Source of the DNA: a virus
Direction: 5' to 3' (one strand)
DNA length: 64,000 nt
IMG/VR virus record: IMGVR_UViG_3300035137_000073
Coordinates: 3,918 to 67,917 of that record
Within the stretch, counting starts at the first letter, position 1; each line of letters opens with the position of its first letter. Of this stretch, positions 3,197 through 15,183 are shown piece by piece. The translations under genes and the position numbers were made by a program. The notes below the pieces were generated by a model. The model made no database searches. It was not told the origin of the DNA and worked only from the letters and a program-made list of their open reading frames with translations.

Positions 3197-4864
3197 GTGG
3201 CGCAGATGATCGAGGAGTTGACGACCGATTTCAGTCGAGGGATGTACGACTCGGTATCGCCGGGTCGATATCCCAAGGCATCGGTGCGTCAGATCTTCAA
3301 TGGTCGGGTACAGCCTGACGGTTCGGTTGAACGTCGGTGGGGCGGCATTCGGACGAGTGCCGCCGTTCCGAACGCCGGTACGGGTTATGGAGGTAGTCGG
3401 TTTACGACCGCTGCGGGTACCGATCAGATCATCGCCATATGCGGTGCGAAGGCGTACAAGAGCGAGGACTACGGGACGACATGGACAGAAATCGCTACGG
3501 GACTGCGTCAGGACTACTACACGTTCGCCGAGATGCGTGTCGGCGCCACGAACTACCTGTTCATGGCCAACGGCGACACGACAATCAAGCGGTGGGATGG
3601 TACGACATGGGATACGGTACCGAACGCTCCATCGGGCGTGAAGTTCCTTGCTGCCAAGGATCGGCGACTCTGGGTATCGGGTCATAGCGGTGTCTTGGTG
3701 CAGGCATGCAAGATCAACGATCCCGAAACGTGGTCGTCTCCTAACGGACTCACGGTACAGGTAGACCAGACGCCGACAGCGATGGCTGTTGTTGCTTCGC
3801 ATCTGTTGGTGTTCGATCGGCACTCGGCCTCATACATCGACGGCTACGGCGAACAGACGTTACTCGTTGCGGCGGGCGCGACGGGATGGTCGCGATCGGT
3901 TGGATGTACGGCGTTCCGAAGTGTCGTCGGTGTCGGCGACAACGGCCTCTGTTGGCTGAGTGAGCGCGGAGTCGAGTACTACTCGCCGGGCAGTGAGATC
4001 AAACTCGTCAGCAACAGCGTGCAGGAGTTCCTTGGCGAGATCGACTGGGAAGAGTTGTACGGCGCGCCGGGCCGCATCTCGGCCACCTACAACGAGACGA
4101 GCCAGAACTACCATATCGTGCTCTCGACCAATGGTACGCGAAACAACCGCAAGTTGATTTTGAACCTGTTCCAGCGAGATGTCGACTACCAGCGGAGCGG
4201 CAACATTGCCGCGGCTGCGATCGACCGGCCTCAGAGTACATCAGGTGGCGACCTGCTATTTGGTGGAGACTCAGACGGGTACCTGGCCGTGGTCGATGGT
4301 GGGTTCGAGCTTGAGTCCGATTCCAACGGATACATGCGGCTGGACACCGACGGTAGCGGCGGCGATCCGACGAGTGAAGATGCCGACGGGTATCTGGACA
4401 CGGTAACCGACGACACGTTGCCAGCGACGCTCTTCGTTGCTCCCTACACCGACAAACCGAACGTCGTGTACTCGATTGGCTACGACGGTTTTGTGCGCAG
4501 GCACTACAACGTCGACAGCGACGACATGTTGTCTGACGAGTCTGGCGGCGTCGAGGTCACGATGTCGATCAGGACGCGGCCCTACGGACAGCGGTACGCC
4601 GATCAGACCAAGCGGGGCCGCACCATTCACGTATCGTCGATTCAGGAAGATACTGCGACTATCACGGTTCAGGGATACGGTCGCGGCACGGCAACGGCCT
4701 CACAAGATCTGACGATGACCGCTTTGGGTGTCGACCATGCCGACCGCCAGAAAGCGCGCATCAAGTTCGACGCAGACGCGCCACAGATCGAACTCCGGAC
4801 AAAAGACAAGGTCAAGATCACGATGATCGGGTTGTCGTTCGAGTTATTGAGGAAACGGCGATGA
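3197..4864 (+). CDS. Podovirus tail tubular/nozzle (stabilisation) protein
   Basis: 555 aa. N-terminal DFSRGM...N....DG...RR.G pattern, beta-propeller-like segments, and position upstream of the ejection genes. Confidence 0.7.
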   Translation: MAQMIEELTTDFSRGMYDSVSPGRYPKASVRQIFNGRVQPDGSVERRWGGIRTSAAVPNAGTGYGGSRFTTAAGTDQIIAICGAKAYKSEDYGTTWTEIATGLRQDYYTFAEMRVGATNYLFMANGDTTIKRWDGTTWDTVPNAPSGVKFLAAKDRRLWVSGHSGVLVQACKINDPETWSSPNGLTVQVDQTPTAMAVVASHLLVFDRHSASYIDGYGEQTLLVAAGATGWSRSVGCTAFRSVVGVGDNGLCWLSERGVEYYSPGSEIKLVSNSVQEFLGEIDWEELYGAPGRISATYNETSQNYHIVLSTNGTRNNRKLILNLFQRDVDYQRSGNIAAAAIDRPQSTSGGDLLFGGDSDGYLAVVDGGFELESDSNGYMRLDTDGSGGDPTSEDADGYLDTVTDDTLPATLFVAPYTDKPNVVYSIGYDGFVRRHYNVDSDDMLSDESGGVEVTMSIRTRPYGQRYADQTKRGRTIHVSSIQEDTATITVQGYGRGTATASQDLTMTALGVDHADRQKARIKFDADAPQIELRTKDKVKITMIGLSFELLRKRR

Positions 4865-5361
4865 TCGAGTTACCGCCAGGCGCCAGCCCAGAGTTGCGCG
4901 AGATCATCAATGTCTTGCGCGAGGAGTTGCTGTGGCGTCGTGAGCCGACGTTGCTGGGATACCGGCACGACGGAACGACTCTGCATCTACGGTTCCGAGC
5001 AGCACTGTCCACTCCGTGGGTTCAGGTCCATGTCCAATCGACAGCGGCCGATGAAGCGGCGGCAGGCGAAATCGGAACGGTATGGGCCGACAACACATGG
5101 GCGACCGACTCGTGGGCTGACGACACATGGGGCGATGTCAGCGAAGGCGGTTCAGAATACGATCCCGATAACTACCAGTCGACTACGCTAGTTGATTGCC
5201 GTGAAGACCGAGTGCAAGACGTGACAGTGACGGATGTGCCGGAAGAGCGCGTTGTGGTCTATCTAATTCCGGTTCAGTACGACGGCGCCGACACAAAAGT
5301 CATGTTCGATGGAGAGAGCGGAAGACCTGATAACATGGCCTTCCAAACGATGGGGCACTGA
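4861..5361 (+). CDS. Hypothetical virion protein
   Basis: ATGA overlap with the previous gene; internal W-A-x-D-x-W repeats. Confidence 0.6.
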   Translation: MIELPPGASPELREIINVLREELLWRREPTLLGYRHDGTTLHLRFRAALSTPWVQVHVQSTAADEAAAGEIGTVWADNTWATDSWADDTWGDVSEGGSEYDPDNYQSTTLVDCREDRVQDVTVTDVPEERVVVYLIPVQYDGADTKVMFDGESGRPDNMAFQTMGH

Positions 5362-5363
5362 TT

Positions 5364-8300
5364 ATGACAGCACCATATTTGACAGACGACGAACTCCAGC
5401 AACAGGCCGAGGAGCAGGCGCAAGCGACACAGGCGCTTCAGACGCCAAGCGCTGCGCCCGGAATGCCCAGTGGGGTGCCTGGGGCTGAAGTTCCTGAAGC
5501 GACATCGCCGGGAGCCAGCGTTCCTCAGGCTCCGGGTGCCGTTCCGTCCGGTGCGGTAACGATGCCGCCACCGCCTCCACAACCACCGACGCTGCCGGGT
5601 CTTTCGCAACAGGTGACACAACACGCGTCCGACTGGCTGAATCAGGGCAATCGGTACCTGTCGCCGTTGGTGAGCGCTACACGCGAAGCCGGAGATCTCA
5701 GAAGAACAGAACAAGAGGCCGCGGCCGCACGCGGAATTGAAGAATGGGCAGCGAGCCGTGGGCTGGTAGGCAGTTCGTATGAAGGCGAGCAGATGGTCGA
5801 TCTTCAGGAATCGCTTGCCCGTGCCCGTGCCGACGAAGAACTCGGGTTGTATCAGATGCTGGCAGACGCCGAATCACTGGACCGACAGGCTGCCGGCGAA
5901 TTCGGGCTCAACACGCTTACCACTCAGGAGAATATCAACTTCCGTGCCCAGGAACTTCTGAACGAAGGTCGGGCGTTGGATTTGCAAGAGGCGCGGGATC
6001 TTGCGGCCGTCGAACTCGCACGCGAGGAGATGGCGCAGAACGAAAGCCAGTTCGGGCAGACGCTTTCTTTCGAAGAAAGGCAGGCCGAAGCGGAACGGGC
6101 GCTCGAGCGTGAACGACTGGCTCAGCAGGGCGAGCAATTCACGGAATCGTTGTCCGAGCAGCGTGCTGGGCGGTTACAGCAATACGGTCTATCTCAGCAG
6201 CAACTGGATCTTGAGGCGCAACGGCTTCAACAGCAGGCCCAAACAGAGGGTCGTACTCTCGATCTTCAGCAGGCGCGTGATGAAGCAGAGATCTCCATAC
6301 GAGCCGAGCAGATGCAAATGGAGGCGATGCTCCAGGGCCGTTCCATGGATATTGAGGAGGCCCGGAACCTTGCGCAGTTGGAACTTGGACAGGCACAGCT
6401 TGAGGAACAGCGTCTCACCCGGATCCAGAGTTTCGGGTTGTCGCAACAGGAACTGGACCTCCAAGCGCAGCAAATCCAACAGCAGGCGGCTCTTGAAGGC
6501 CGGCGCCTCGACCTCACCGAGGCTCGGGACGAAGCCGAACTTACGTTGCGGGCAGAGCAGCTACAACAGGAAGCGATGTTGCAGGGTAGGTCGCTTGATA
6601 TCGAAGAGGCACGGAATCTTGCCACTCAGGAGATCGCCCAAGCTCAGCTTGCCGAACAACGCGCTCAACGTCTTCAAGACTACGGCGTTACGCAGCAGCA
6701 ATACGACCTGCAGGTGCAGCGACTTCAGCAAGAGGCCAGTCTTTCCGGTCGGCAGATGGACATCCAAGAGGCGCAGTTTACCGCCGAGGTTGGATTCCGG
6801 ATGCAGCAGTTGCAGCAAGAGGCCGAACTGGAAGGCAGATCCCTCGACATTCAGGAGGCGAGAAACCAGGCCGAGCAGGAAATCGCCTACGCCGGACTCA
6901 GGCAGTCAGAGTCGCAATTCATGCAGCAACTCGGGATTTCGCAACAGGAAGTTGATCTACGTGCGCAACAGCTGCAGCAGCAGTACCAGTTGGAGGGTCG
7001 CAGCCTAGACCTGCAGGAAGCCAGGGACCAGGTCGTCCAACAGGTGCAACTTGGCCAACTTGGTATCGCGCAACAGGAAGTCGATTTGAGGGCCGAGGAA
7101 CTTCAGCAAGAGGCACGTCTCCAGGGCCGGGCCCTCGACCTACAGGAAGCCCGCGATCAGGCGTCTCACGAGCTTCAGGCGCAGCAGCTGGGCATCTCAC
7201 AGCAAGAGGTCGACCTTCGCGCGCAGGAATTGGTTCAGCAGGCAGCCCTACAGGGCCGTTCCCTAGACCTCGAGCAGGCTCGCGACGACGCGACTCGCGA
7301 GTTGGCGACACAGCGGCTGGCGATGGAGGAGTCGCAGTTCAACCAGATGATGTCCGAACAGCAGGCGGCCCGACTGCAGAACTACGACATCTCGACGCAG
7401 CAGCTGAATCAGGAAGCCCGGAGACTTCAGCAGGAAGCTGAACTACAGAATCGGCAGATGGACATTCAGGAGGCTCAGGGCGAGGCCGAGATCAACCTTC
7501 GCGGTCAGCAAATCCAGCAGGAATACGAACTCCAAGGTCGGGCGCTCGACATTGAGCAGGCCAACAACATCGCTCGGAACGAAGTTGCTTATGCGCAACT
7601 TGAAGAGCAGACAGCTGGACGGCTGCAGCAGTACGGAATCTCGCAGCAGGAATTGTCTCTTGAGCAACAGCGACTGACCCAGCAGGCTGAACTCGAAGGC
7701 CGGTCGCTGGACATCACCGAAGCTCTTGGACAGGCCGAAATCAACCTGCGTAGCGAGCAACTTCAACAGGAGGCGGCGCTGGAAGGTCGGTCGTTGGATC
7801 TGCAGGAAAGCCGGATCTTGGCCGAGCAGGAAATTGCGTACGCTCGACTGGACGAGGACCGGGCTGCGAGGTTACAGCAGTTCGATCTGACTCAACAGCA
7901 ACTCGACGTGGAAGTTCAACGGTTGCAACAGGAAGCGCAGTTGGAAGGCCGGAGTTTGGATATCAGAGAAGCCGAATCTCAGGCCGAGATCAATCTGCGG
8001 ACACAACAACTCCAGCAGGAAGCCCAGCTTCAGGGACGTGCACTCGACATTGAAGAGGCTCGAAACCAGGCGACAGCCGAGATCCAGCGTCAGCAGCTTG
8101 GAATCTCGCAGCAAGAAGTCGATCTACGGGCACAGCAGATACAGCAACAGGCCGCGCTCGAAGGCCGTTCGATGGACATCCAGGAAGCGCAGTTTGAGGC
8201 CACACAGGTCCTTGCGCGCGAAGAGATGGAATTCCGGGAGCGGCTACAGGAATCGGAGATTGCACAGCGGGAAAGCGAGTTCGCCCGTAGTCTTGGACTC

Positions 8301-9617
8301 AGCGAACGCGAGTTTTCAGCACAGCAAGACCAGTTTGCGGCGCAGTTGGCCGAAGAGACGGCTGCCAGATTCCAAGAAAACGAGCAGTTTTATGCCGCTC
8401 TGCAGTCCGACGAAGCCCAATACGCTCTTGACTTCGGACTGCGCGATCGTGCTCTCGATCTTCAGCTTCAGGGCATGGAGATGGATGAAGCGTTTCGGCA
8501 AGCCAGTCTCGATCAGGAGAGAGATCTGCAGGAACGGTCGCTTGACTTGCAGGAAATGGGGATGTCGTCGGACGACTCGTACCGATACGCCGTATTGGCT
8601 CAGGATTCGCAGTTCCAGCAGATGCAGATCGATCTACAGAACCGCGGGCTCGATATCGAGGAGTCGTACCGAGAAGCCGAGCAGTTCGTTCAGTTGCGTC
8701 AGCTGGACATCTCGCAGCAAGAGGTCAATCTCCGTGCCGATCAGCTGACACAAGAAGCTGAACTGGCCGGCCGAGAGCTCGATTTGATGGAAGCCCGAGA
8801 TCAGGCCCAGATTGATCTTGCCGAGGACCAGATGGAACATCAGTGGGAACTGGCCAACCTCGAGTTGGCTCAGCGCGAAAGCGAATTCGCCCGGGCCTAC
8901 AATCTCGACGAACGTCAGTATGCCGAACAGCAACGTCAGTTCTCCGTTCAGTACACCGAACAGGTCCAAAGCCGACTGCAACAGGACGCGCAGTTCCAGG
9001 CAACGCTGGCACAGGATGACGCGCAGTTCGCCCTTGAAGTTGGGTTGCGCGAACGGGCGCTCGGCCTTCAGGAAACCGGCATGCTCATGGACGACGCATA
9101 CCGTCAGGCCGCTCTCGATCAGGAGCGAGCCATTCAGGAAGGTGCGCAGGAGCTTCAGCGCCAAGGCATCTACATGGAAGATGCCTATCGATACGCGGTA
9201 TTGGAGCAAGACGCCGAATTCCAGCGTCGTGCGCAGGATCTGCAGGAACAGGGCATGAACATGGAGGATGCGTATCGGCAAGCTGATCTCGATTTGCGAA
9301 ACCGTGCGCTTGCCGAAGAGCACTACCAGTTTGCGCAGGAGATGCAGTTCCGCGAAGACCAAGCGCTGGACGATCAGGCTCGGTTCGACCAGATATACGA
9401 GTTGTACCAGGAAATATGGGGTGACGAGGATGGCGACGACGGCGATACAACGACAACTATCGTGAACGTATACGGCGGTGGCACAACAGGCACAGGCGAT
9501 ACAACCGGCAATCCAGATGAGTATCCAAACATCAACCCGGACAACGGCGGCACGTGGCATTGGGATCCTGACATAGGTAACTGGGTTGACGACGAAGGAA
9601 ATGAGTACGAGGAATAA
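5364..9617 (+). CDS. Gln/Glu-rich alpha-helical repeat protein, putative DNA ejection/pilot (internal virion) protein
   Basis: 1417 aa with about 17-20 copies of QQEAxL(E/Q)GRxLDxxEA. Located in the podoviral ejection-gene slot. Confidence 0.7.
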   Translation: MTAPYLTDDELQQQAEEQAQATQALQTPSAAPGMPSGVPGAEVPEATSPGASVPQAPGAVPSGAVTMPPPPPQPPTLPGLSQQVTQHASDWLNQGNRYLSPLVSATREAGDLRRTEQEAAAARGIEEWAASRGLVGSSYEGEQMVDLQESLARARADEELGLYQMLADAESLDRQAAGEFGLNTLTTQENINFRAQELLNEGRALDLQEARDLAAVELAREEMAQNESQFGQTLSFEERQAEAERALERERLAQQGEQFTESLSEQRAGRLQQYGLSQQQLDLEAQRLQQQAQTEGRTLDLQQARDEAEISIRAEQMQMEAMLQGRSMDIEEARNLAQLELGQAQLEEQRLTRIQSFGLSQQELDLQAQQIQQQAALEGRRLDLTEARDEAELTLRAEQLQQEAMLQGRSLDIEEARNLATQEIAQAQLAEQRAQRLQDYGVTQQQYDLQVQRLQQEASLSGRQMDIQEAQFTAEVGFRMQQLQQEAELEGRSLDIQEARNQAEQEIAYAGLRQSESQFMQQLGISQQEVDLRAQQLQQQYQLEGRSLDLQEARDQVVQQVQLGQLGIAQQEVDLRAEELQQEARLQGRALDLQEARDQASHELQAQQLGISQQEVDLRAQELVQQAALQGRSLDLEQARDDATRELATQRLAMEESQFNQMMSEQQAARLQNYDISTQQLNQEARRLQQEAELQNRQMDIQEAQGEAEINLRGQQIQQEYELQGRALDIEQANNIARNEVAYAQLEEQTAGRLQQYGISQQELSLEQQRLTQQAELEGRSLDITEALGQAEINLRSEQLQQEAALEGRSLDLQESRILAEQEIAYARLDEDRAARLQQFDLTQQQLDVEVQRLQQEAQLEGRSLDIREAESQAEINLRTQQLQQEAQLQGRALDIEEARNQATAEIQRQQLGISQQEVDLRAQQIQQQAALEGRSMDIQEAQFEATQVLAREEMEFRERLQESEIAQRESEFARSLGLSEREFSAQQDQFAAQLAEETAARFQENEQFYAALQSDEAQYALDFGLRDRALDLQLQGMEMDEAFRQASLDQERDLQERSLDLQEMGMSSDDSYRYAVLAQDSQFQQMQIDLQNRGLDIEESYREAEQFVQLRQLDISQQEVNLRADQLTQEAELAGRELDLMEARDQAQIDLAEDQMEHQWELANLELAQRESEFARAYNLDERQYAEQQRQFSVQYTEQVQSRLQQDAQFQATLAQDDAQFALEVGLRERALGLQETGMLMDDAYRQAALDQERAIQEGAQELQRQGIYMEDAYRYAVLEQDAEFQRRAQDLQEQGMNMEDAYRQADLDLRNRALAEEHYQFAQEMQFREDQALDDQARFDQIYELYQEIWGDEDGDDGDTTTTIVNVYGGGTTGTGDTTGNPDEYPNINPDNGGTWHWDPDIGNWVDDEGNEYEE

Positions 9618-9629
9618 CAGGAGCGAACC

Positions 9630-10184
9630 ATGGGAATCTTCGGATCGATAAAGAACGCCATCACCGGACCGTTCCGGGCGATCAACGAGCTTGCTCACGG
9701 TAGGCCCCGGGGAGCGATCGGCGCGCTTGGTGACACGGTGAAACCTGCCGGTGTTATTCTCGGTGCTACGGGAGTGGGATTGCCAGTTGCTGCCGGGGTC
9801 AGCGCCCTGGGTGGGGCGATGCAGAAGGCTGACGATGTCGGGAATCGCGGATTCGAAGACATCGTGGGTGGCGCCGCCGAAGGTGGGATGCTTGGTGCCG
9901 GGTCGGCGTTGGCTCCCATCGCTGTCGACAAACTTGGCGGGCTTAGTGCAATCGCCAACTACGCTAAGTCGAATCCGCAGACGGTCTTACAGGGATTGGG
10001 TACGGCTTCTAATATGTATGGATCGTACGAACAGGGACGGGCGTACGACGATCGTTTGGCGGCCGATCAGCTGTATCGTGACCAACAGGCGAGGTTGGAT
10101 GAGGCCGAGCGACAGCGTCGGTTCGACCTCAGCAAACTCAACACACTTGTGAGCATGATGAGTGCAACAAGACCGAGGTATTGA
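9630..10184 (+). CDS. Gly/Ala-rich internal virion (ejection) protein
   Basis: MGIFGSIKN start, glycine-zipper hydrophobic segments, C-terminal helix. Confidence 0.6.
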   Translation: MGIFGSIKNAITGPFRAINELAHGRPRGAIGALGDTVKPAGVILGATGVGLPVAAGVSALGGAMQKADDVGNRGFEDIVGGAAEGGMLGAGSALAPIAVDKLGGLSAIANYAKSNPQTVLQGLGTASNMYGSYEQGRAYDDRLAADQLYRDQQARLDEAERQRRFDLSKLNTLVSMMSATRPRY

Positions 10185-11149
10185 CGATGTCCTATGCGTT
10201 AGGAGGGGCGTTTCAGGCGCTTGGATCGGGGCTTAGCGAGATCGGTCGTATCGCAGCTGCGAGGAGACGCGAAGAAGAACAGCGGCGACTCCGTGAGGCG
10301 GCGCAGTACGATGTTGACATAATGCAGCCTGGTGTTGTGCCACTCAGAGATATCGCGAACGCGTCGGCAACGGTACCTGAGGACGCGAGAACGCTATCAT
10401 CGGGCGTCATGGTCAGTCCTGGCTTGGCCGAGGAACAGGCGATCGCCGCTGAAAGAGATGCGCATCGACGCCAGATGAACTACGATCTCGAGCGGTCGAG
10501 ATTGGCTGAACAGGAGAGGGCGTACGGTCCCGACGCACGTGGCGAACGGGCAACCGCTGCCTTTGTGGTCGAGCAGAATCCGGAATTGTTTGCGGGTGCG
10601 CCGCGCGATGTCATGCAGAGTCCCAAAGCCATCATGAACGTTGCTCGATACGCAGCGGGACAGCAGCAGCCTGCGCAAGGCGAACGGAATGCGCGACTCA
10701 ACCTGAACCAAGCTCTGGAATTCGTGAAAGACAAATACGCTACTAGGGATGAGTTCGCTCCGAACAGGATCACGGGTCACTCGGTTCCGCATGAGCAGAT
10801 GTATCAGATGGCAAGAGAAATGGCGAACACGGGCGAGTTCAGAGAGATATTGCCTGTTGCGCCACCGATGATGGCAAGGCCGCCAGCGGGTTCGGAACAG
10901 ACAGGTGCACGTGCCGTGGTACCGACAGCTTCTCCGATGAACGCCGAGGTTGATTCTTCTGCCAGGATGCCAACTGCCGCAACCGAGGATGACGTGTGGA
11001 GTCGTTTGGGTGTTCAGCGATCCGAACTGGAAAGAGACATAGCCGAAGCAAAAGAAGAAGGGTTGAGCGACGATCAAATCCTAGCGGGTCTGCGTGGTGC
11101 ACCTAGAGCCGTACTTGTCGAAGCACGACGGATACTTGGTGGAAGATAA
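10181..11149 (+). CDS. Putative internal virion protein
   Basis: Overlaps both neighbours; N-terminal amphipathic G-rich helix. Confidence 0.55.
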   Translation: MTMSYALGGAFQALGSGLSEIGRIAAARRREEEQRRLREAAQYDVDIMQPGVVPLRDIANASATVPEDARTLSSGVMVSPGLAEEQAIAAERDAHRRQMNYDLERSRLAEQERAYGPDARGERATAAFVVEQNPELFAGAPRDVMQSPKAIMNVARYAAGQQQPAQGERNARLNLNQALEFVKDKYATRDEFAPNRITGHSVPHEQMYQMAREMANTGEFREILPVAPPMMARPPAGSEQTGARAVVPTASPMNAEVDSSARMPTAATEDDVWSRLGVQRSELERDIAEAKEEGLSDDQILAGLRGAPRAVLVEARRILGGR

Positions 11150-14100
11150 TGCCCGACCAAGATCGCTTCGCGAAGTACCGGGAAAATGATCGGTTCGCCA
11201 AGTACCGAGAGCAGGATGAGCCCGGCTTACTGCGTCGGGTTGCCGACGTTGGTTCTACGGTGTTTCAGGCTGTCGCAGATCCCATTGGTTTCACGGCTCG
11301 CCAAGTTATCCCGAAGGCCCCTGATATTCTACGGCAGACGGGTCGGGGGCTTGCCGAGTCGGGGTACGCGACTGCAATCGGTACCACCCAACTCGTTGGT
11401 GCTGATGAATTTGCCGAAAACTTGCGGGAAGGTCGTGAAAGCGCACGCGAATTCTACGGTGCACCCGAAAGCGGCGTCGGTGCCGTTGCCGGAACCGCAG
11501 CACGCATGGCTGGCGATGTTGCTCAGTTCATGGCACCTGGGTCAGCCATTGCACGATTCGCGAAGCCAGCCACTACACTCGGAAAGGTGGGCTTAGAGGT
11601 TGCGACAGGAGCTCCGCTGGATGCAGCCATAGCCGCGTCAGGACGTGAGGAGTCCCTTGCAGGTATGGCAGCCGACATCACTGGATCCGAGACGTTGGGG
11701 CAAATAGCAGAAAGTCCATTTGGAAGAGCGGCTGTGGATGTTGCCGTTGGGGCTGGAATAGGCGGTAGCTTGGCTGCCGCGGGTGCTCGCGGTGGTCGTT
11801 CGGCGACACGCACCGCAGACGACATTGCATCCACACGACGAGTCATTGACGAGCCTACTGGAGTGGGGCGATTCGAAAAATACACTGAGCCATCAACGGA
11901 TGTAGTGGTGCGTGCAGAGCCAGCGCAGGAACCGTCCGTCGTGCAAGTTGCAACCGACGCCGTGGAAGTTGGAACCCAACCTAAGGCACTAGATCGGCTT
12001 CAGTCGTTACATCGCGAAATGCGTCAGGTTGAGCGAGAAGGCGAACAGGTCAGCGATGAGTTGTTTGATGAGTTTGAAGTGGCTTTCGAAGAACGTCTCG
12101 ACCGAATCCAGAATGAGATGGACAAAGTCAAGAAGGATGTATATGAGCAGGATGGCCCCGAGGCCCACGCTAGTCTTCTTGATGCGTTTGATGAGTGGAT
12201 AGAACACAAGGAAGGGAGTGTTCAGGGGATTGGGGGCGATCAAAGCGTGTGGGATACCGATACACCCGAGTTCCCAACGACAGTCGATGAGACAAGAGAG
12301 GCGTTGGCCGATCCCAATATTGTCATCGATGAAACCGGACCATCTGACGCCCTAGAATCGCGCGTACCGGCTTTGGAGTCTGCGTCCACCCAAGACCCCA
12401 TCGAAGGCATCGAACGTCAGGTACGCGCTGAGGAGCGTCCAGCGTTAGGTACCGAAACGGCACAGCCGGAAGCTGTAGACGATGTCCAGGGCCGCAGCGG
12501 TTTCGACGAGTACTTGGCGGACATGACAGAGCGCGGCGACGCAGTGGGTATGGCTGGGGGCGGTGAGGCTGGATATGTAAACCCAACAGCAGTCGGCAAG
12601 GGAATCAAAGCCTTCATTCGTCGGAACTTCACAAGCGCCGGTGATTTGCCGAAGAAGGTATTCGATCGCATGATCCGCCGTGACGGTGGTGTGAATTCTC
12701 TGCAGCGCGAAGTTGCTTACACTCTCCGCGATTTCAGGCGCACTGCGCGCGAGGTATACGGCACAGCCAATTTGTCGTCAGAACAACTTGAGCAGATAGA
12801 CACCGCGCTGAAGGGGGAGTCGTCGGTTGTTCCAGAAGAGATGCGATCGGTCGTTGCCAAGATGCGCAACGATATCGACGACATGAGTCGGCGACTCATT
12901 GATGCTGGGGCTATCGATTCGGAGCTTGTACCAGCAGTAACCGACAATCTCGGCTTGTATGCGACTCGTTCCTACCAGGTGTTCGATGATCCCAAATGGG
13001 CCGAGAAGGTGCTGTCAAAGCATCCTGATGTGGCCCGTAAGGTCTGGCACTTGTTGGAAAACGAGAACCCAAACCTGCCGCGCGAAGAAATCGAAGGGCT
13101 TTTCAAGGCGCTCCTCGAGCGTGGTGAGGACAGCCCGCTGGCGTTGATCCAACAAGGAAAGCTGGGCAGCAAGGACCTCTCCATCGTCACTCGAAGAAAA
13201 GATATCGACCCGGCAATTCGTGCGCTGTGGGGCGAATACCACGACCCTCGTGTCAACTACGCACGATCGATGACGAAGATGGCGCACCTTTTGGAAAACC
13301 ACAAGTTTCTCCAAGACGTGCGGTCGGAAGGGCTCGGGCAGTTCTTCTTTGAAACGCCGATTTCCCGCGAAGGGGTCGACTACGTCCAGCAGTTTGCCGC
13401 GGAAGGGTCGAAGACGTTGGAGCCTTTGAATGGGCTCTATACCACCAGAGAGATCGCTGACGCGTTTGAAAGGGTAGTCGAATCATCGCCAGCCCCCGAC
13501 TGGCTGAGGGCATACTTTGGAGTCAATTCGGCAGTCAAGTTTTCGAAGACGATCGGATCGTTGATGACGCATGTCCGCAACACAGTCGGCAACGTAGGGT
13601 TTGCCGTTGCCAACGGACACTGGCGTGTGGACAAAATGGGTGAGGCCGCAAAGACAGTTTGGGGCGATTTGTGGGACGTTGGCTTGAAAGACAAAGCGAA
13701 GTGGCGCGAGATCTACCGCGAGTTGGTGGATCTTGGAGTTGTGCACGAAAGCGCGCGTGCCGGCGAATTGCGAGATGCTATTGCGGATGCCATCAGTGAT
13801 TCTGATACCCTTGTGGGTGGGCTCCCGCAGCGTGTCGCGAAAAAGACTCTGCGGGGCGCCCAAAACGTCTATCGTGCCGAAGATGACGTGTGGAAGGTGT
13901 ATGCCTATCACAATGAGTACAGCCGGTACAAGAAACAGCTACCGGACATGCCCGAAGACGAACTGAAACGGCATGTAGCAGCGATAGTGCGCGACACCTA
14001 TCCGACATACTCATTGGTACCATATGGCGTGAAGATGGCACGGCGGTTCCCTGGTGTTGGAACGTTTGTGTCCTTCCCGGCCGAAGTGGTTCGAACATTA

Positions 14101-15183
14101 GGGAATTCACTTGCGCTAACGGCCAAGGAATTGAAGGATCCAGCGCTGCGTAGTATAGGCGCTCAGCGGCTTGCGGGCTTGGCAACCGCCGCAACGTCGG
14201 TATGGGGTGCAACGGTGGCATCCCGCCACATGAACGGCATAGACCGCGACACGGACCAGGGCGTTCGGCGCTTCTTACCTAGCTGGTCGCAGAACAGCTC
14301 TCTGTTCTATCTGAACCGAAACGAAGACGGCAGGGCGCGGTTTGTTGATCTGAGTTACACCGATCCGTATTCGTACATACGCAAGCCTTTGATGGCGTTC
14401 ATGCGTGGCGAAGATTGGAACGAAGCCGTTTTGCAGGCCGGTGCCGAAGCGGCAGAACCTTTTCTTTCCGAAGAGATTCTAGCCGGCAAAGTCTTCGACA
14501 TTGTACGGAATCGGAAAAAGGATGGAGGCGAGGTTTTCAACCCAGAGGCCTCTTGGAACGAGCGAGCGCAGGCTATTGGGCTTCACATTCTAGACGCATT
14601 GGAGCCAGGTACAATCTCGAGCATGCAACGCATTTGGCGCGGAATTCGAGGTACAACTACAGTGCACGGCCGCAGCTATGATCCCGTACTTGAGGCCAAA
14701 GCGGTGTTGACTGGATTTCGCATTCAGGAGCTGGACGTTCCGCAAGCCTTGTCGTGGAACGCTCGAAAGGCGCAGGGACGTATGGGGGATGCGCAGGCGA
14801 TGTTGAGCAGCGTTGCAGGACGTGGAGGTTCTGTGGACGACGCTGAACTGGAAAACGCCTACCGTCAAAGCGAGACTTCAAGGCAGGAGATTTTTGAGGG
14901 ATTGGTCCAGGATGTGGCGGCGGCGCGGAATCTTGGTATGAACAACAGGGATATTCACGATGTGCTGCGTAGCGTCGGGATGTCGAACGACCAAGCTACC
15001 GAGGTCATGAACGGTAGTTACCTGCCGTACCGTCCAGGCGATCAATTTCTCGAACGGAAGGCGAGGGCGGTAGCTAGTACCGCGAATCCTGAGGAACGGC
15101 GCGGACTCATACGTGATTACCGTCTTAGGCGCCAGCGTGTACAACAAATGGCTGATAGCGCCAGGGCCACGCGGAGGCGATAG
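11149..15183 (+). CDS. Large internal virion/ejection protein
   Basis: 1344 aa, N-terminal DRFAKYRE x2, G/A-rich helices, last large gene of the structural module. Confidence 0.65.
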   Translation: MPDQDRFAKYRENDRFAKYREQDEPGLLRRVADVGSTVFQAVADPIGFTARQVIPKAPDILRQTGRGLAESGYATAIGTTQLVGADEFAENLREGRESAREFYGAPESGVGAVAGTAARMAGDVAQFMAPGSAIARFAKPATTLGKVGLEVATGAPLDAAIAASGREESLAGMAADITGSETLGQIAESPFGRAAVDVAVGAGIGGSLAAAGARGGRSATRTADDIASTRRVIDEPTGVGRFEKYTEPSTDVVVRAEPAQEPSVVQVATDAVEVGTQPKALDRLQSLHREMRQVEREGEQVSDELFDEFEVAFEERLDRIQNEMDKVKKDVYEQDGPEAHASLLDAFDEWIEHKEGSVQGIGGDQSVWDTDTPEFPTTVDETREALADPNIVIDETGPSDALESRVPALESASTQDPIEGIERQVRAEERPALGTETAQPEAVDDVQGRSGFDEYLADMTERGDAVGMAGGGEAGYVNPTAVGKGIKAFIRRNFTSAGDLPKKVFDRMIRRDGGVNSLQREVAYTLRDFRRTAREVYGTANLSSEQLEQIDTALKGESSVVPEEMRSVVAKMRNDIDDMSRRLIDAGAIDSELVPAVTDNLGLYATRSYQVFDDPKWAEKVLSKHPDVARKVWHLLENENPNLPREEIEGLFKALLERGEDSPLALIQQGKLGSKDLSIVTRRKDIDPAIRALWGEYHDPRVNYARSMTKMAHLLENHKFLQDVRSEGLGQFFFETPISREGVDYVQQFAAEGSKTLEPLNGLYTTREIADAFERVVESSPAPDWLRAYFGVNSAVKFSKTIGSLMTHVRNTVGNVGFAVANGHWRVDKMGEAAKTVWGDLWDVGLKDKAKWREIYRELVDLGVVHESARAGELRDAIADAISDSDTLVGGLPQRVAKKTLRGAQNVYRAEDDVWKVYAYHNEYSRYKKQLPDMPEDELKRHVAAIVRDTYPTYSLVPYGVKMARRFPGVGTFVSFPAEVVRTLGNSLALTAKELKDPALRSIGAQRLAGLATAATSVWGATVASRHMNGIDRDTDQGVRRFLPSWSQNSSLFYLNRNEDGRARFVDLSYTDPYSYIRKPLMAFMRGEDWNEAVLQAGAEAAEPFLSEEILAGKVFDIVRNRKKDGGEVFNPEASWNERAQAIGLHILDALEPGTISSMQRIWRGIRGTTTVHGRSYDPVLEAKAVLTGFRIQELDVPQALSWNARKAQGRMGDAQAMLSSVAGRGGSVDDAELENAYRQSETSRQEIFEGLVQDVAAARNLGMNNRDIHDVLRSVGMSNDQATEVMNGSYLPYRPGDQFLERKARAVASTANPEERRGLIRDYRLRRQRVQQMADSARATRRR

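Follow-up and report, generated by a model that had tools for sequence, protein, structure and literature searches.

The window analyzed here, a 64,000-nucleotide stretch taken from a viral contig of 67,917 bp (bases 3918-67917), carries on its plus strand a gene (positions 5364..9617) for P0001, a glutamine-rich protein of 1417 amino acids that contains no lysine and no cysteine. The gene lies downstream of one whose product is predicted to fold as the tail nozzle or hub of a podovirus, within a block of cysteine-free proteins that ends in a giant protein with a virion-protein homologue. Our preferred reading, which we hold with about even confidence, is that P0001 is the first protein of a podovirus ejection (internal-virion or pilot) module and represents a new, unnamed protein family. 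Of all virion components of short-tailed phages, ejection proteins are understood least, and they are hard to spot by sequence. A first-pass annotation, made from the nucleotide sequence alone, had already described the protein as "ejection-type," and its genomic context fits that description.

The open reading frame (ORF) starts with an ATG 3 nt past the stop codon of the preceding ORF and comprises 1417 codons plus a stop codon. The composition count bore out the earlier observation that lysine and cysteine are absent (0 of each), and the translated product is a helical-repeat protein rich in Gln (253 residues; 17.9%), Glu (182; 12.8%), Ala (174; 12.3%), Leu (165; 11.6%), and Arg (115; 8.1%). 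Asn makes up 2.5%, Gln and Asn together make up 20.3%, and amide and guanidinium residues together account for 28% of the chain. There are 276 acidic residues (Asp plus Glu) versus the 115 arginines, for a net charge of -161. The 23 prolines are confined to residues 4-101 and 1384-1402, leaving 1282 consecutive proline-free residues (102-1383), which agrees with the gap of about residues 105 to 1385 noted previously. Because the G+C content of the gene (58.3%) is close to that of the window (57.5%), base composition was rejected as the cause of the absence of lysine. The 17 other late or structural ORFs in the window (6488 residues) encode 214 lysines (3.3%) and 45 cysteines (0.69%), and lysine ranges from 0 to 9.4% among all other ORFs of the window. 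Against the background of these 17 ORFs, the probability of finding no lysine in 1417 residues is about 2e-21 and that of finding no cysteine is about 5e-5, values that assume independent residues, an assumption that the repeats of P0001 break. A single substitution would create a lysine codon at 555 of the 1417 codons, at 196 of them by a transition, and the 555 codons include all 182 Glu and all 253 Gln codons. Antisense and other-frame ORFs of 85-354 residues also occur within 5364-9617 (for example, 8634-9698 on the minus strand) and are regarded not as genes but as a side effect of the skewed composition and repeats of the sequence.

The assignment of the phage to the podoviruses comes from the 555-residue tail nozzle/hub protein encoded at 3197..4864 on the plus strand. 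Its AlphaFold2 model has a predicted local distance difference test score (pLDDT) of 88.6 and a predicted template-modeling score (pTM) of 0.88, and a Foldseek search of the PDB with this model returned the Pa223 tail (E = 2.7e-19; template-modeling [TM] score, 0.67/0.72), the P22 gp10-gp26 entry (5.9e-17), Sf6 (2.9e-15), and T7 gp12 (2.1e-10), with further matches to VP1, Pan3, PhiM1, and GP4. Since this protein is predicted to fold as a podovirus nozzle or hub, the source phage, uncultured and about 68 kb in size, is a podovirus judging by the model. The nozzle protein has 76 homologues, many of them on contigs of 67-72 kb.

Downstream of the nozzle gene, and separated from it by one small ORF, the P0001 gene is followed on the same strand by genes encoding proteins of 184 (9630..10184), 322 (10181..11149), and 1344 (11149..15183) residues, all of them free of cysteine. 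Six related loci (L003, L004, L005, L007, L015, and L017) have the same succession of genes: the nozzle, a small variable ORF, the Q-rich protein, a protein of about 184-300 residues, a protein of about 279-398 residues, and the giant protein. The 184-residue protein is Gly/Ala-rich and hydrophobic, with a transmembrane-like segment at residues 40-61, and is by its sequence features a candidate membrane-active ejection protein. The 1344-residue protein matches phrog_22602, "virion structural protein," at an E value of 6.7e-47 and is homologous (tblastn) to gp123 of Cellulophaga phage phi18:3, a 1935-residue protein annotated as structural from tandem mass spectrometry. In the published account of ejection clusters (PMC8954989), a gp14-like protein of about 200 residues has predicted transmembrane helices, the gp16-like protein is the largest, and the gp15-like periplasmic-tunnel protein is all-helical with a length of 431-982 residues; T7 gp15 and gp16 are both described there as all-helical, and gp15-like proteins, which have only 7-9% identity from one group to another, are paired there on the basis of size and synteny. 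The P0001 cluster likewise lies by a nozzle gene and includes both a membrane-type protein of about 200 residues and a protein of more than 600 residues, with an internal order unlike that of T7 or P22. The overall arrangement parallels that of T7 and P22, in which a nozzle or hub gene precedes the ejection proteins.

The strongest compositional argument for placing P0001 in the ejected set is the lack of cysteine that it shares with its neighbors. The Q-rich, 184-, 322-, and 1344-residue proteins contain 0 cysteines in 3267 residues, versus 4 in the nozzle protein and 7 in the putative portal, and the corresponding block is cysteine-free in six related loci in which the flanking genes do contain cysteine. 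The same holds for established ejection proteins: 15 such proteins from five phages have 2 cysteines in 11,606 residues, with counts of 1, 0, and 0 for T7 gp14, gp15, and gp16; 0, 0, and 0 for P22 gp7, gp20, and gp16; 1, 0, and 0 for Sf6 gp11, gp12, and gp13; 0, 0, and 0 for phiKMV gp35, gp36, and gp37; and 0, 0, and 0 for N4 gp50, gp51, and gp52, including the 3500-residue virion RNA polymerase (vRNAP). The nozzles or hubs in the set of T7, P22, Sf6, phiKMV, and N4 have 4-7 cysteines each, and the spikes have 8-13; portals in this set contain cysteine as well. The proteins encoded before the giant protein in phi18:3 (gp120-123) and in HTVC027P (gp82-85) are cysteine-free as well. Within the P0001 family itself, members of at least 300 residues contain 15 cysteines in 93,455 residues, and 140 of 145 have none. 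This near-absence is a regularity computed in the present analysis and not a published criterion; the word "cysteine" has 0 occurrences in the ejection-protein review PMC8954989, and the literature searched, supplements lying outside the search, held no discussion of the cysteine content of ejection proteins or of lysine-free ones and nothing relevant on glutamine-rich or tandem-repeat ejection proteins. The lack of cysteine may plausibly reflect passage of unfolded chains into an oxidizing periplasm. It does not separate all of the rival explanations considered below, because cysteine is likewise missing from the tail needles and from several scaffold proteins. It may nevertheless be an easy marker to carry over to other genomes when ejection modules are annotated.

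P0001 consists of conserved terminal parts and a long central repeat array. A conserved acidic N-terminal peptide, MTxPYLTxEE... (residues 1-23; 5364..5432), whose conservation is seen in homologue alignments and which has a helix predicted by AlphaFold2 at residues 8-23, is joined by a Pro-rich linker ending in PPPPPQPP (residues 24-76; 5433..5591; pLDDT below 50 at residues 23-69) to a conserved N-domain (residues 77-206; 5592..5981), which is predicted to form a long alpha-hairpin with helices at residues 99-131 and 138-206. No motif of the family is more conserved than the tip of this hairpin, RGLxGSSxEGE, in which E127, R132, G133, and S137 are each at 90% or more. The repeat region (residues 207-954; 5982..8225) is followed by a C-module (QRESEFAR...RLQQ..QF...GLRxRALDLQxxGMxxDEAFR...), which is built of helix-turn-helix units resembling those of the repeats, in which the helix breaks at QGMxxD, and which is duplicated within the protein (copy 1, residues 955-1130, 8226..8753; copy 2, residues 1158-1317, 8835..9314). 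At its end (residues 1353-1417; 9420..9614), the chain has a linker rich in Gly and Thr, followed by a small tail that is both aromatic and acidic (..GGTWHWDPDIGNWVDDEGNEYEE). This aromatic tail is common to a few close homologues, whereas the C termini of other family members vary. All of these segments are encoded on the plus strand.

P0001 contains 17 strict matches to the motif G[RQ]x[LM]D, at residues 202, 296, 325, 379, 408, 462, 491, 545, 588, 631, 725, 779, 808, 862, 891, 934, and 1136, with successive spacings of 94, 29, 54, 29, 54, 29, 54, 43, 43, 94, 54, 29, 54, 29, 43, and 202 residues. The spacings of 29, 43, and 54 residues reported in the first-pass annotation for GRxLD are therefore real, the same ones being counted for GRxLD and GRxMD. 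Cutting the sequence at its glycine motifs yields three helix modules, a (21 residues, GLSQQELDLxAQxLQQQAxLE), b (29 residues, GRxLDLxEARDEAExxLRxEQLQQEAxLQ), and c (33 residues, GRSLDIEEARNxAxxEIAxAQLEEQRxxRLQxY), which together form an 83-residue super-repeat, and the 43-residue unit is made up of a shortened c module (c', 22 residues) and an a module (21 residues). A spacing of 29 thus corresponds to b, 54 to c plus a, and 43 to c' plus a, so that the spacings derive from the modules of the super-repeat. Autocorrelation of the protein sequence gave a top lag of 83 residues (36% identity), followed by 166, 29, 54, 43, and 94. It had also been noted that the spacings lie near multiples of 3.6 and sums of 7 and 11; the arithmetic holds, but the structural signal that it would imply does not appear, as Fourier analysis found no coherent heptad or hendecad periodicity of hydrophobic residues (periods 3.5-3.667) over residues 196-960, with power of 0.0 at a period of 3.5, 0.2 at 3.6, and 0.1 at 3.667 against a shuffle maximum of 1.3 ± 0.3.

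The repeat copies are old, because six clean 83-residue copies share only 55% protein identity and 36% identity at third codon positions (56% over the DNA as a whole) and because Tandem Repeats Finder detected no DNA-level repeat in the P0001 gene. The array has thus amassed many substitutions, yet without a single lysine or cysteine codon. Among 90 near-complete instances of the super-repeat in 58 family proteins, its three glycines are kept at 96, 68, and 72%, and four arginines are conserved (R39, 84%; R23, 72%; R52, 70%; and R60, 70%), with lysine at 5% or less at these positions.

Residues 1-1200, modeled with AlphaFold2 from an alignment that included 75 homologues, had a mean pLDDT of 79.8 and 35 helices with a median length of 23 residues, the longest being 81 residues. 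The helix at residues 8-23 is followed by the disordered Pro-rich stretch and then by 34 more helices, and 28 of the 32 interhelix gaps contain glycine, the gaps falling at EGRSLD and YGLS motifs. Given these 35 short helices and the conserved glycines at their breaks, the chain is predicted to be a series of short amphipathic helices with tight turns between them and not one long helix. The earlier proposal of a continuous helix of about 180 nm is not supported, in view of the helix count, the glycines at the breaks and their conservation at 68-96%, and the lack of 3.5-3.67 periodicity. In the repeat region, structure comparison with VIA found local superpositions of two or three helices (Z of 3-5 over 45-67 residues). 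One VIA row for the N-domain, 7ey7_A, which is T7 gp14 residues 37-139 according to PMC8954989, aligned 102 of 102 residues with model residues 81-184 (Z = 8.4; root-mean-square deviation, 3.3 Å); it is kept as a lead only, because it ranks 18th among tied unrelated hairpins and falls below the bar used for helical proteins. A complex prediction with three copies of residues 1160-1417 gave a score of 0.15 and a mark of 0.42, to which no weight is attached either way.

An exhaustive profile-free search of 1.84 billion representatives recovered 213 cluster representatives (50% identity) at E values of ≤1e-3, of which 52 were at ≤1e-30, and a word-index search recovered 25 long family members. 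Lengths run from about 320 to 1417 residues, P0001 being the longest seen and in composition the most extreme, and the next longest having 1403 and 1373 residues; in the shortest members (about 320-480 residues), the N-domain directly abuts the C-module. Both the N-domain and the C-module were present in 65 of 164 collected proteins, and a super-repeat hidden Markov model (HMM) matched 117 of the 164, with 13 hits in P0001 and 6 in the next richest protein. The idea that length varies with repeat number was thus upheld, with 13 HMM hits in P0001 versus 0-6 elsewhere. The modular grammar of the family amounts to a natural length series for studying envelope crossing. A scan of viral contigs with P0001 alone found no relative, and one with a smaller family alignment found 7 loci; a scan of genome contigs with this smaller alignment gave 9 pattern stretches, among which no relative was confirmed, so that it yielded neither a prophage copy nor a host assignment. 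No Pfam family matched P0001 or eight neighboring proteins at E values of ≤0.01, phmmer searches of PDB sequences with P0001, the nozzle protein, and the giant protein returned nothing meaningful, and the sole PHROGs match of P0001 was phrog_35597, of unknown function (E = 0.0011). ESM Atlas matches of P0001 were limited to viral "hypothetical protein" clusters. A compositional analogue of the family, the 286-residue gp83 of the Pelagibacter phage HTVC027P (L012:10715-11575), lies two genes before a giant structural protein and has 18.9% Gln, 1.7% Lys, and 0 Cys among neighbors with 8-10% Lys; hhalign gave a nonsignificant probability of 1.65% between it and the P0001 family.

Several results weigh against an ejection-module role. 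The family alignment showed no relationship to T7 gp14, T7 gp15, or P22 gp20 in hhalign comparisons (probability, 0.05-0.11%); tblastn against 50,697 phage records left P0001 (E ≤ 1e-5) and the short homologue P0045 (E ≤ 1e-2) unmatched; and the family HMM had no match in phi18:3, HTVC027P, vB_Pun_Y3, or 023Pt_psg01. The P0001 gene precedes the small membrane-type gene, whereas gp15-like genes follow theirs, and the 184-, 322-, and 1344-residue proteins could themselves be the gp14/gp15/gp16 analogue set, with P0001 as a fourth, accessory protein. The net charge of -161 compares with -22 to +9 for established ejection proteins and -47 for the 3500-residue N4 vRNAP, and per residue it is nearer to that of the T7 scaffold (-38 in 307 residues). 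Established ejection proteins have ordinary lysine contents (2.7-7.6%), so membership in this class does not explain the lysine-free composition of P0001. The 1200-residue model, whose pTM of 0.39 does not fix the overall shape, had no significant fold match: its best matches fell short in Foldseek searches of the PDB (E = 6.6e-3; TM score, ≤0.38) and of BFVD (E = 1.4e-3 with a TM score of 0.06), and VIA returned generic long hairpins covering residues 76-206 only, with Z of ≤9.5, below the bar for helical proteins.

If P0001 is an ejection protein, it would be packaged in the head and would exit by way of the portal and nozzle, either before the DNA or along with it. Passage through the narrow channel would take place unfolded or helix by helix, with rapid refolding afterwards, and would be made feasible by short helices, flexible glycine turns, the lack of cysteine, the proline-free stretch, and low hydrophobicity. 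In the cell envelope, the protein may oligomerize and form an extension or conduit together with the 184-, 322-, and 1344-residue proteins, the number of super-repeats setting the length of the conduit. The module helices, as modeled, are about 17, 23, and 27 residues long and are split by the conserved glycine turns; with individual helices measuring only some 3-4 nm, a rod of tens of nanometers rather than 180 nm would be expected. Such a structure may span the envelope and be tunable in length.

The absence of lysine is a separate question. Among the 145 family members of at least 300 residues, the median lysine content is 1.28% (range, 0-6.8%), with 10 members lysine-free and 30 at 3% or more. 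Because homologues have this much lysine, its exclusion is dispensable for family function and is lineage specific. The first-pass annotation had named ordinary lysine content in homologues as evidence against its reading of the protein as a DNA tube; such contents do occur in part of the family, and other members lack lysine entirely. Where homologues carry lysine, P0001 has Gln at about 22% of the positions, Arg at 17-22% (background, 8%), and Glu at about 15%. The lysine contents of homologues were 0.7% at a locus G+C of 0.56, 0.2% at 0.65, 3.0% at 0.67, 0% at 0.64, 0.1% at 0.60, and 2.3% at 0.58. A role for G+C content as the driver of lysine loss was rejected, as homologue lysine (0-3.0%) does not track locus G+C over 0.56-0.67. 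The total lack of lysine in P0001 is better described as the extreme of a family-wide, nonobligatory preference for Arg and Gln over Lys.

Lysine deserts (Szulc et al. 2023, as reviewed in PMC13696103) have been defined as stretches without lysine that span at least 150 residues or at least 50% of a protein, and they are reported to be enriched in some phage proteomes, namely those of Mycobacterium phages; with 0 lysines in 1417 residues, P0001 goes far beyond both definitions. For the deserts of Mycobacterium phages, the same review presents evasion of the Pup-proteasome as an untested hypothesis, with G+C bias as the main alternative (PMC13696103). Those phages have a high G+C content and a host for which the Pup-proteasome is discussed, whereas the P0001 genome has 57.5% G+C and 1-9% Lys in its other genes. 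A bacterial ubiquitin-like system is described as conjugating to a phage central tail fiber (bioRxiv 10.1101/2023.09.04.556158). Purged of lysine despite 555 one-step codons, P0001 is an extreme natural lysine desert in a phage of moderate G+C content, and it is a candidate for asking whether host lysine-directed systems select on virion proteins. A bolder extension of the ejection reading, which we consider distinctly improbable, is that the family forms a modular trans-envelope conduit or rod whose length is set by the number of 83-residue modules (0 to about 10), perhaps matching the envelope thickness of hosts such as the Planctomycetota or Gemmatimonadota hinted at by the labels of metagenome bins, with a Gln/Glu/Arg chemistry from which lysine has been purged in several lineages against lysine-directed capture (ubiquitin-like or Pup-type conjugation or Schiff-base DNA cross-links) and with the near-total lack of cysteine as a general, hitherto unnoticed signature of ejection proteins in podovirus genomes.

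An unlikely alternative, raised by the position of the gene and its architecture, places P0001 on the outside of the tail as a needle, a plug, or a central fiber analogous to P22 gp26 or Sf6 gp9, with the N-domain plugging the nozzle, a segmented shaft, and an aromatic beta-hairpin tip. The needle of P22 (gp26) and Sf6 (gp9) is a trimeric coiled coil that is expelled at the start of infection. Placement near the nozzle/hub gene, with one small ORF between them and none in L015, where the genes are directly adjacent, mirrors the location of gp26 after gp10 in P22 and of gp9 after gp8 in Sf6; the P22 and Sf6 needles are cysteine-free as well; the shaft would vary in length through its repeats; and many family members end, past a Gly-rich linker, in motifs like W/Y-x-W-D-G-x-x-W-V, which we take to resemble foldon-type hairpins. 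These C-terminal tails are not conserved family-wide, however, and the shaft has no continuous heptad register; its cores of Ala/Leu stripes and its conserved glycine turns of 4-6 residues would suit antiparallel packing within a chain better than a parallel trimer. The known needles are also smaller (233-282 residues, versus 320-1417 for the P0001 family with its Gly-interrupted, strongly acidic helices), gp26 has a net charge of -6 and 5.2% Gln versus -161 and 18% for P0001, and fiber-like genes for proteins of 710 and 267 residues are already present upstream.

The acidity that speaks against a needle is accommodated by a second alternative, which we also judge to be unlikely, in which P0001 is an internal head protein that forms no conduit, serving as a core on which the ejection proteins assemble or as a factor in their assembly, as a polyanionic pressure filler, or as an injected acidic decoy or DNA mimic. 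Its charge per residue is like that of the T7 scaffold, gp9; the scaffolds of T7, P22, and phiKMV are likewise cysteine-free; prohead targeting would be a suitable role for the conserved N-terminal peptide with its flexible, Pro-rich tether; and the 184-, 322-, and 1344-residue proteins could already fill the gp14, gp15, and gp16 roles. The canonical scaffold position between the putative portal gene and the capsid gene is held by a separate and unrelated scaffold-like gene, however, and the conserved hairpin tip and the repeat arginines (70-84%) argue for specific contacts rather than filler. No resemblance to known DNA mimics came up, although no search was directed at them. That P0001 is instead the tape-measure protein of a long-tailed phage, with its length tuned by repeats, is scarcely credible and was rejected on the nozzle fold of the 555-residue protein: although P0001 is a long, all-helical, internally repeated protein of the late region with weak BFVD rows that include tape-measure proteins (E = 0.04-0.4; TM score, 0.06-0.1), the conserved protein encoded close by has a podovirus nozzle/hub fold, no tail-tube, sheath, or chaperone gene was recognized when the ORFs around it were scanned against PHROGs and Pfam, relatives of the giant neighbor occur in a phage family with a podoviral member (Pachyviridae, the family of phi18:3, includes Gundel, described as podoviral in PMC8776804), and the shortest family members, at about 320-400 residues, would be too short.

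Elsewhere in the genome, PHROGs searches recognized TerL through phrog_2 (E = 8.1e-20) and the major capsid protein through phrog_14242 (6.1e-11), and a 465-residue scaffold-like gene, unrelated to P0001, lies between the putative portal and capsid genes. tblastn searches with the capsid and nozzle proteins left both unmatched in the 50,697 phage records. Replication genes, including those for a YqaJ-type exonuclease and a DnaB-type helicase, begin after the 1344-residue gene, and a tRNA gene search found none. Bases 1-126 of the contig recur at 67,774-67,899, starting 144 bases from its end. Although the record carries the class "linear," this recurrence makes the contig circular or terminally redundant, so that the late/structural region spans its ends. 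The 710-residue protein encoded at the start of the contig (L002:1722-3854) has PHROGs matches to a tail protein (1.9e-10), a tail fiber (7.3e-07), and a minor head protein (2.1e-13) and is probably a fiber of the podovirus; the fiber-like protein of 267 residues, encoded upstream of P0001, is Gly/Thr/Ala-rich.

The ORF between the nozzle and Q-rich genes (4861..5361, plus strand) encodes a variable protein of 166 residues. Among the loci compared (L003, L005, L007, L017, and L018), its counterparts have 127-214 residues in most and 582 in L007; the interval holds an unrelated 379-residue ORF in L004 and no ORF in L015. The variable protein may be a plug, a needle, or an assembly factor. Weak ESM Atlas rows for the 184-residue protein include a cluster like the type III secretion system translocator SseC (TM score, 0.42), and its hydrophobic stretches recall membrane-inserting pilot proteins. 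The 1344-residue protein had no Pfam domain at E values of ≤0.01. Its kin include giant proteins of 1374-2222 residues in sister contigs, and over residues 453-1302 it is 30% identical (E = 2e-107) to what the depositor of Pseudoalteromonas phage vB_Pun_Y3 named an "ADP-ribosyltransferase." A scan with the nozzle alignment found five contigs in metagenome-assembled genomes (MAGs; L014-L018) labeled Gemmatimonadaceae (two), Thermoguttaceae, Planctomycetota, and Dehalococcoidia. Because L015 and L017, the two long contigs inspected, look like phage contigs binned into MAGs and not like integrated prophages, these labels are a weak hint of the host only and not evidence.

Among known systems, P0001 most resembles the gp15-like proteins (T7 gp15, P22 gp20, Sf6 gp12, phiKMV gp36, and N4 gp51) in its cluster setting, helicity, lack of cysteine, variability in size, and moderate to strong enrichment in Gln (9.1% in P22 gp20, 9.7% in Sf6 gp12, and 17.9% in P0001). 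It differs from them in having 0 Lys where they have 3.6-7.6%, in its 1417 residues versus their 431-982, and in its regular 83-residue super-repeats. The arrangement of short antiparallel helices and tight turns is shared with spectrin-type and designed helical repeats and with TAL and PPR proteins, and the weak top rows of the PDB search were designed alpha/alpha toroids, TAL, and PPR, with no significant global match to any of them; a unit of three helices, as in the super-repeat, would also recall spectrin. A further comparison, made by description, is with the phiX174 H protein, which the first-pass annotation correctly described as a Gln-lined helical DNA conduit with hendecad repeats. 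The published structure is a decameric tube of 170 Å, lined by Gln, Asn, and Arg (18 of 23 inward residues are N, Q, or R), in which each chain contributes a single uninterrupted coiled-coil helix, about 120 residues long and composed of 3 hendecads and 11 heptads (PMC7354561). Both proteins have helices rich in amide and guanidinium residues, and for both a trans-envelope DNA conduit derived from the capsid interior has been proposed, but H is a single continuous helix from the Microviridae, whereas P0001 is predicted to comprise at least 35 helices cut by glycines and belongs to a tailed podovirus.

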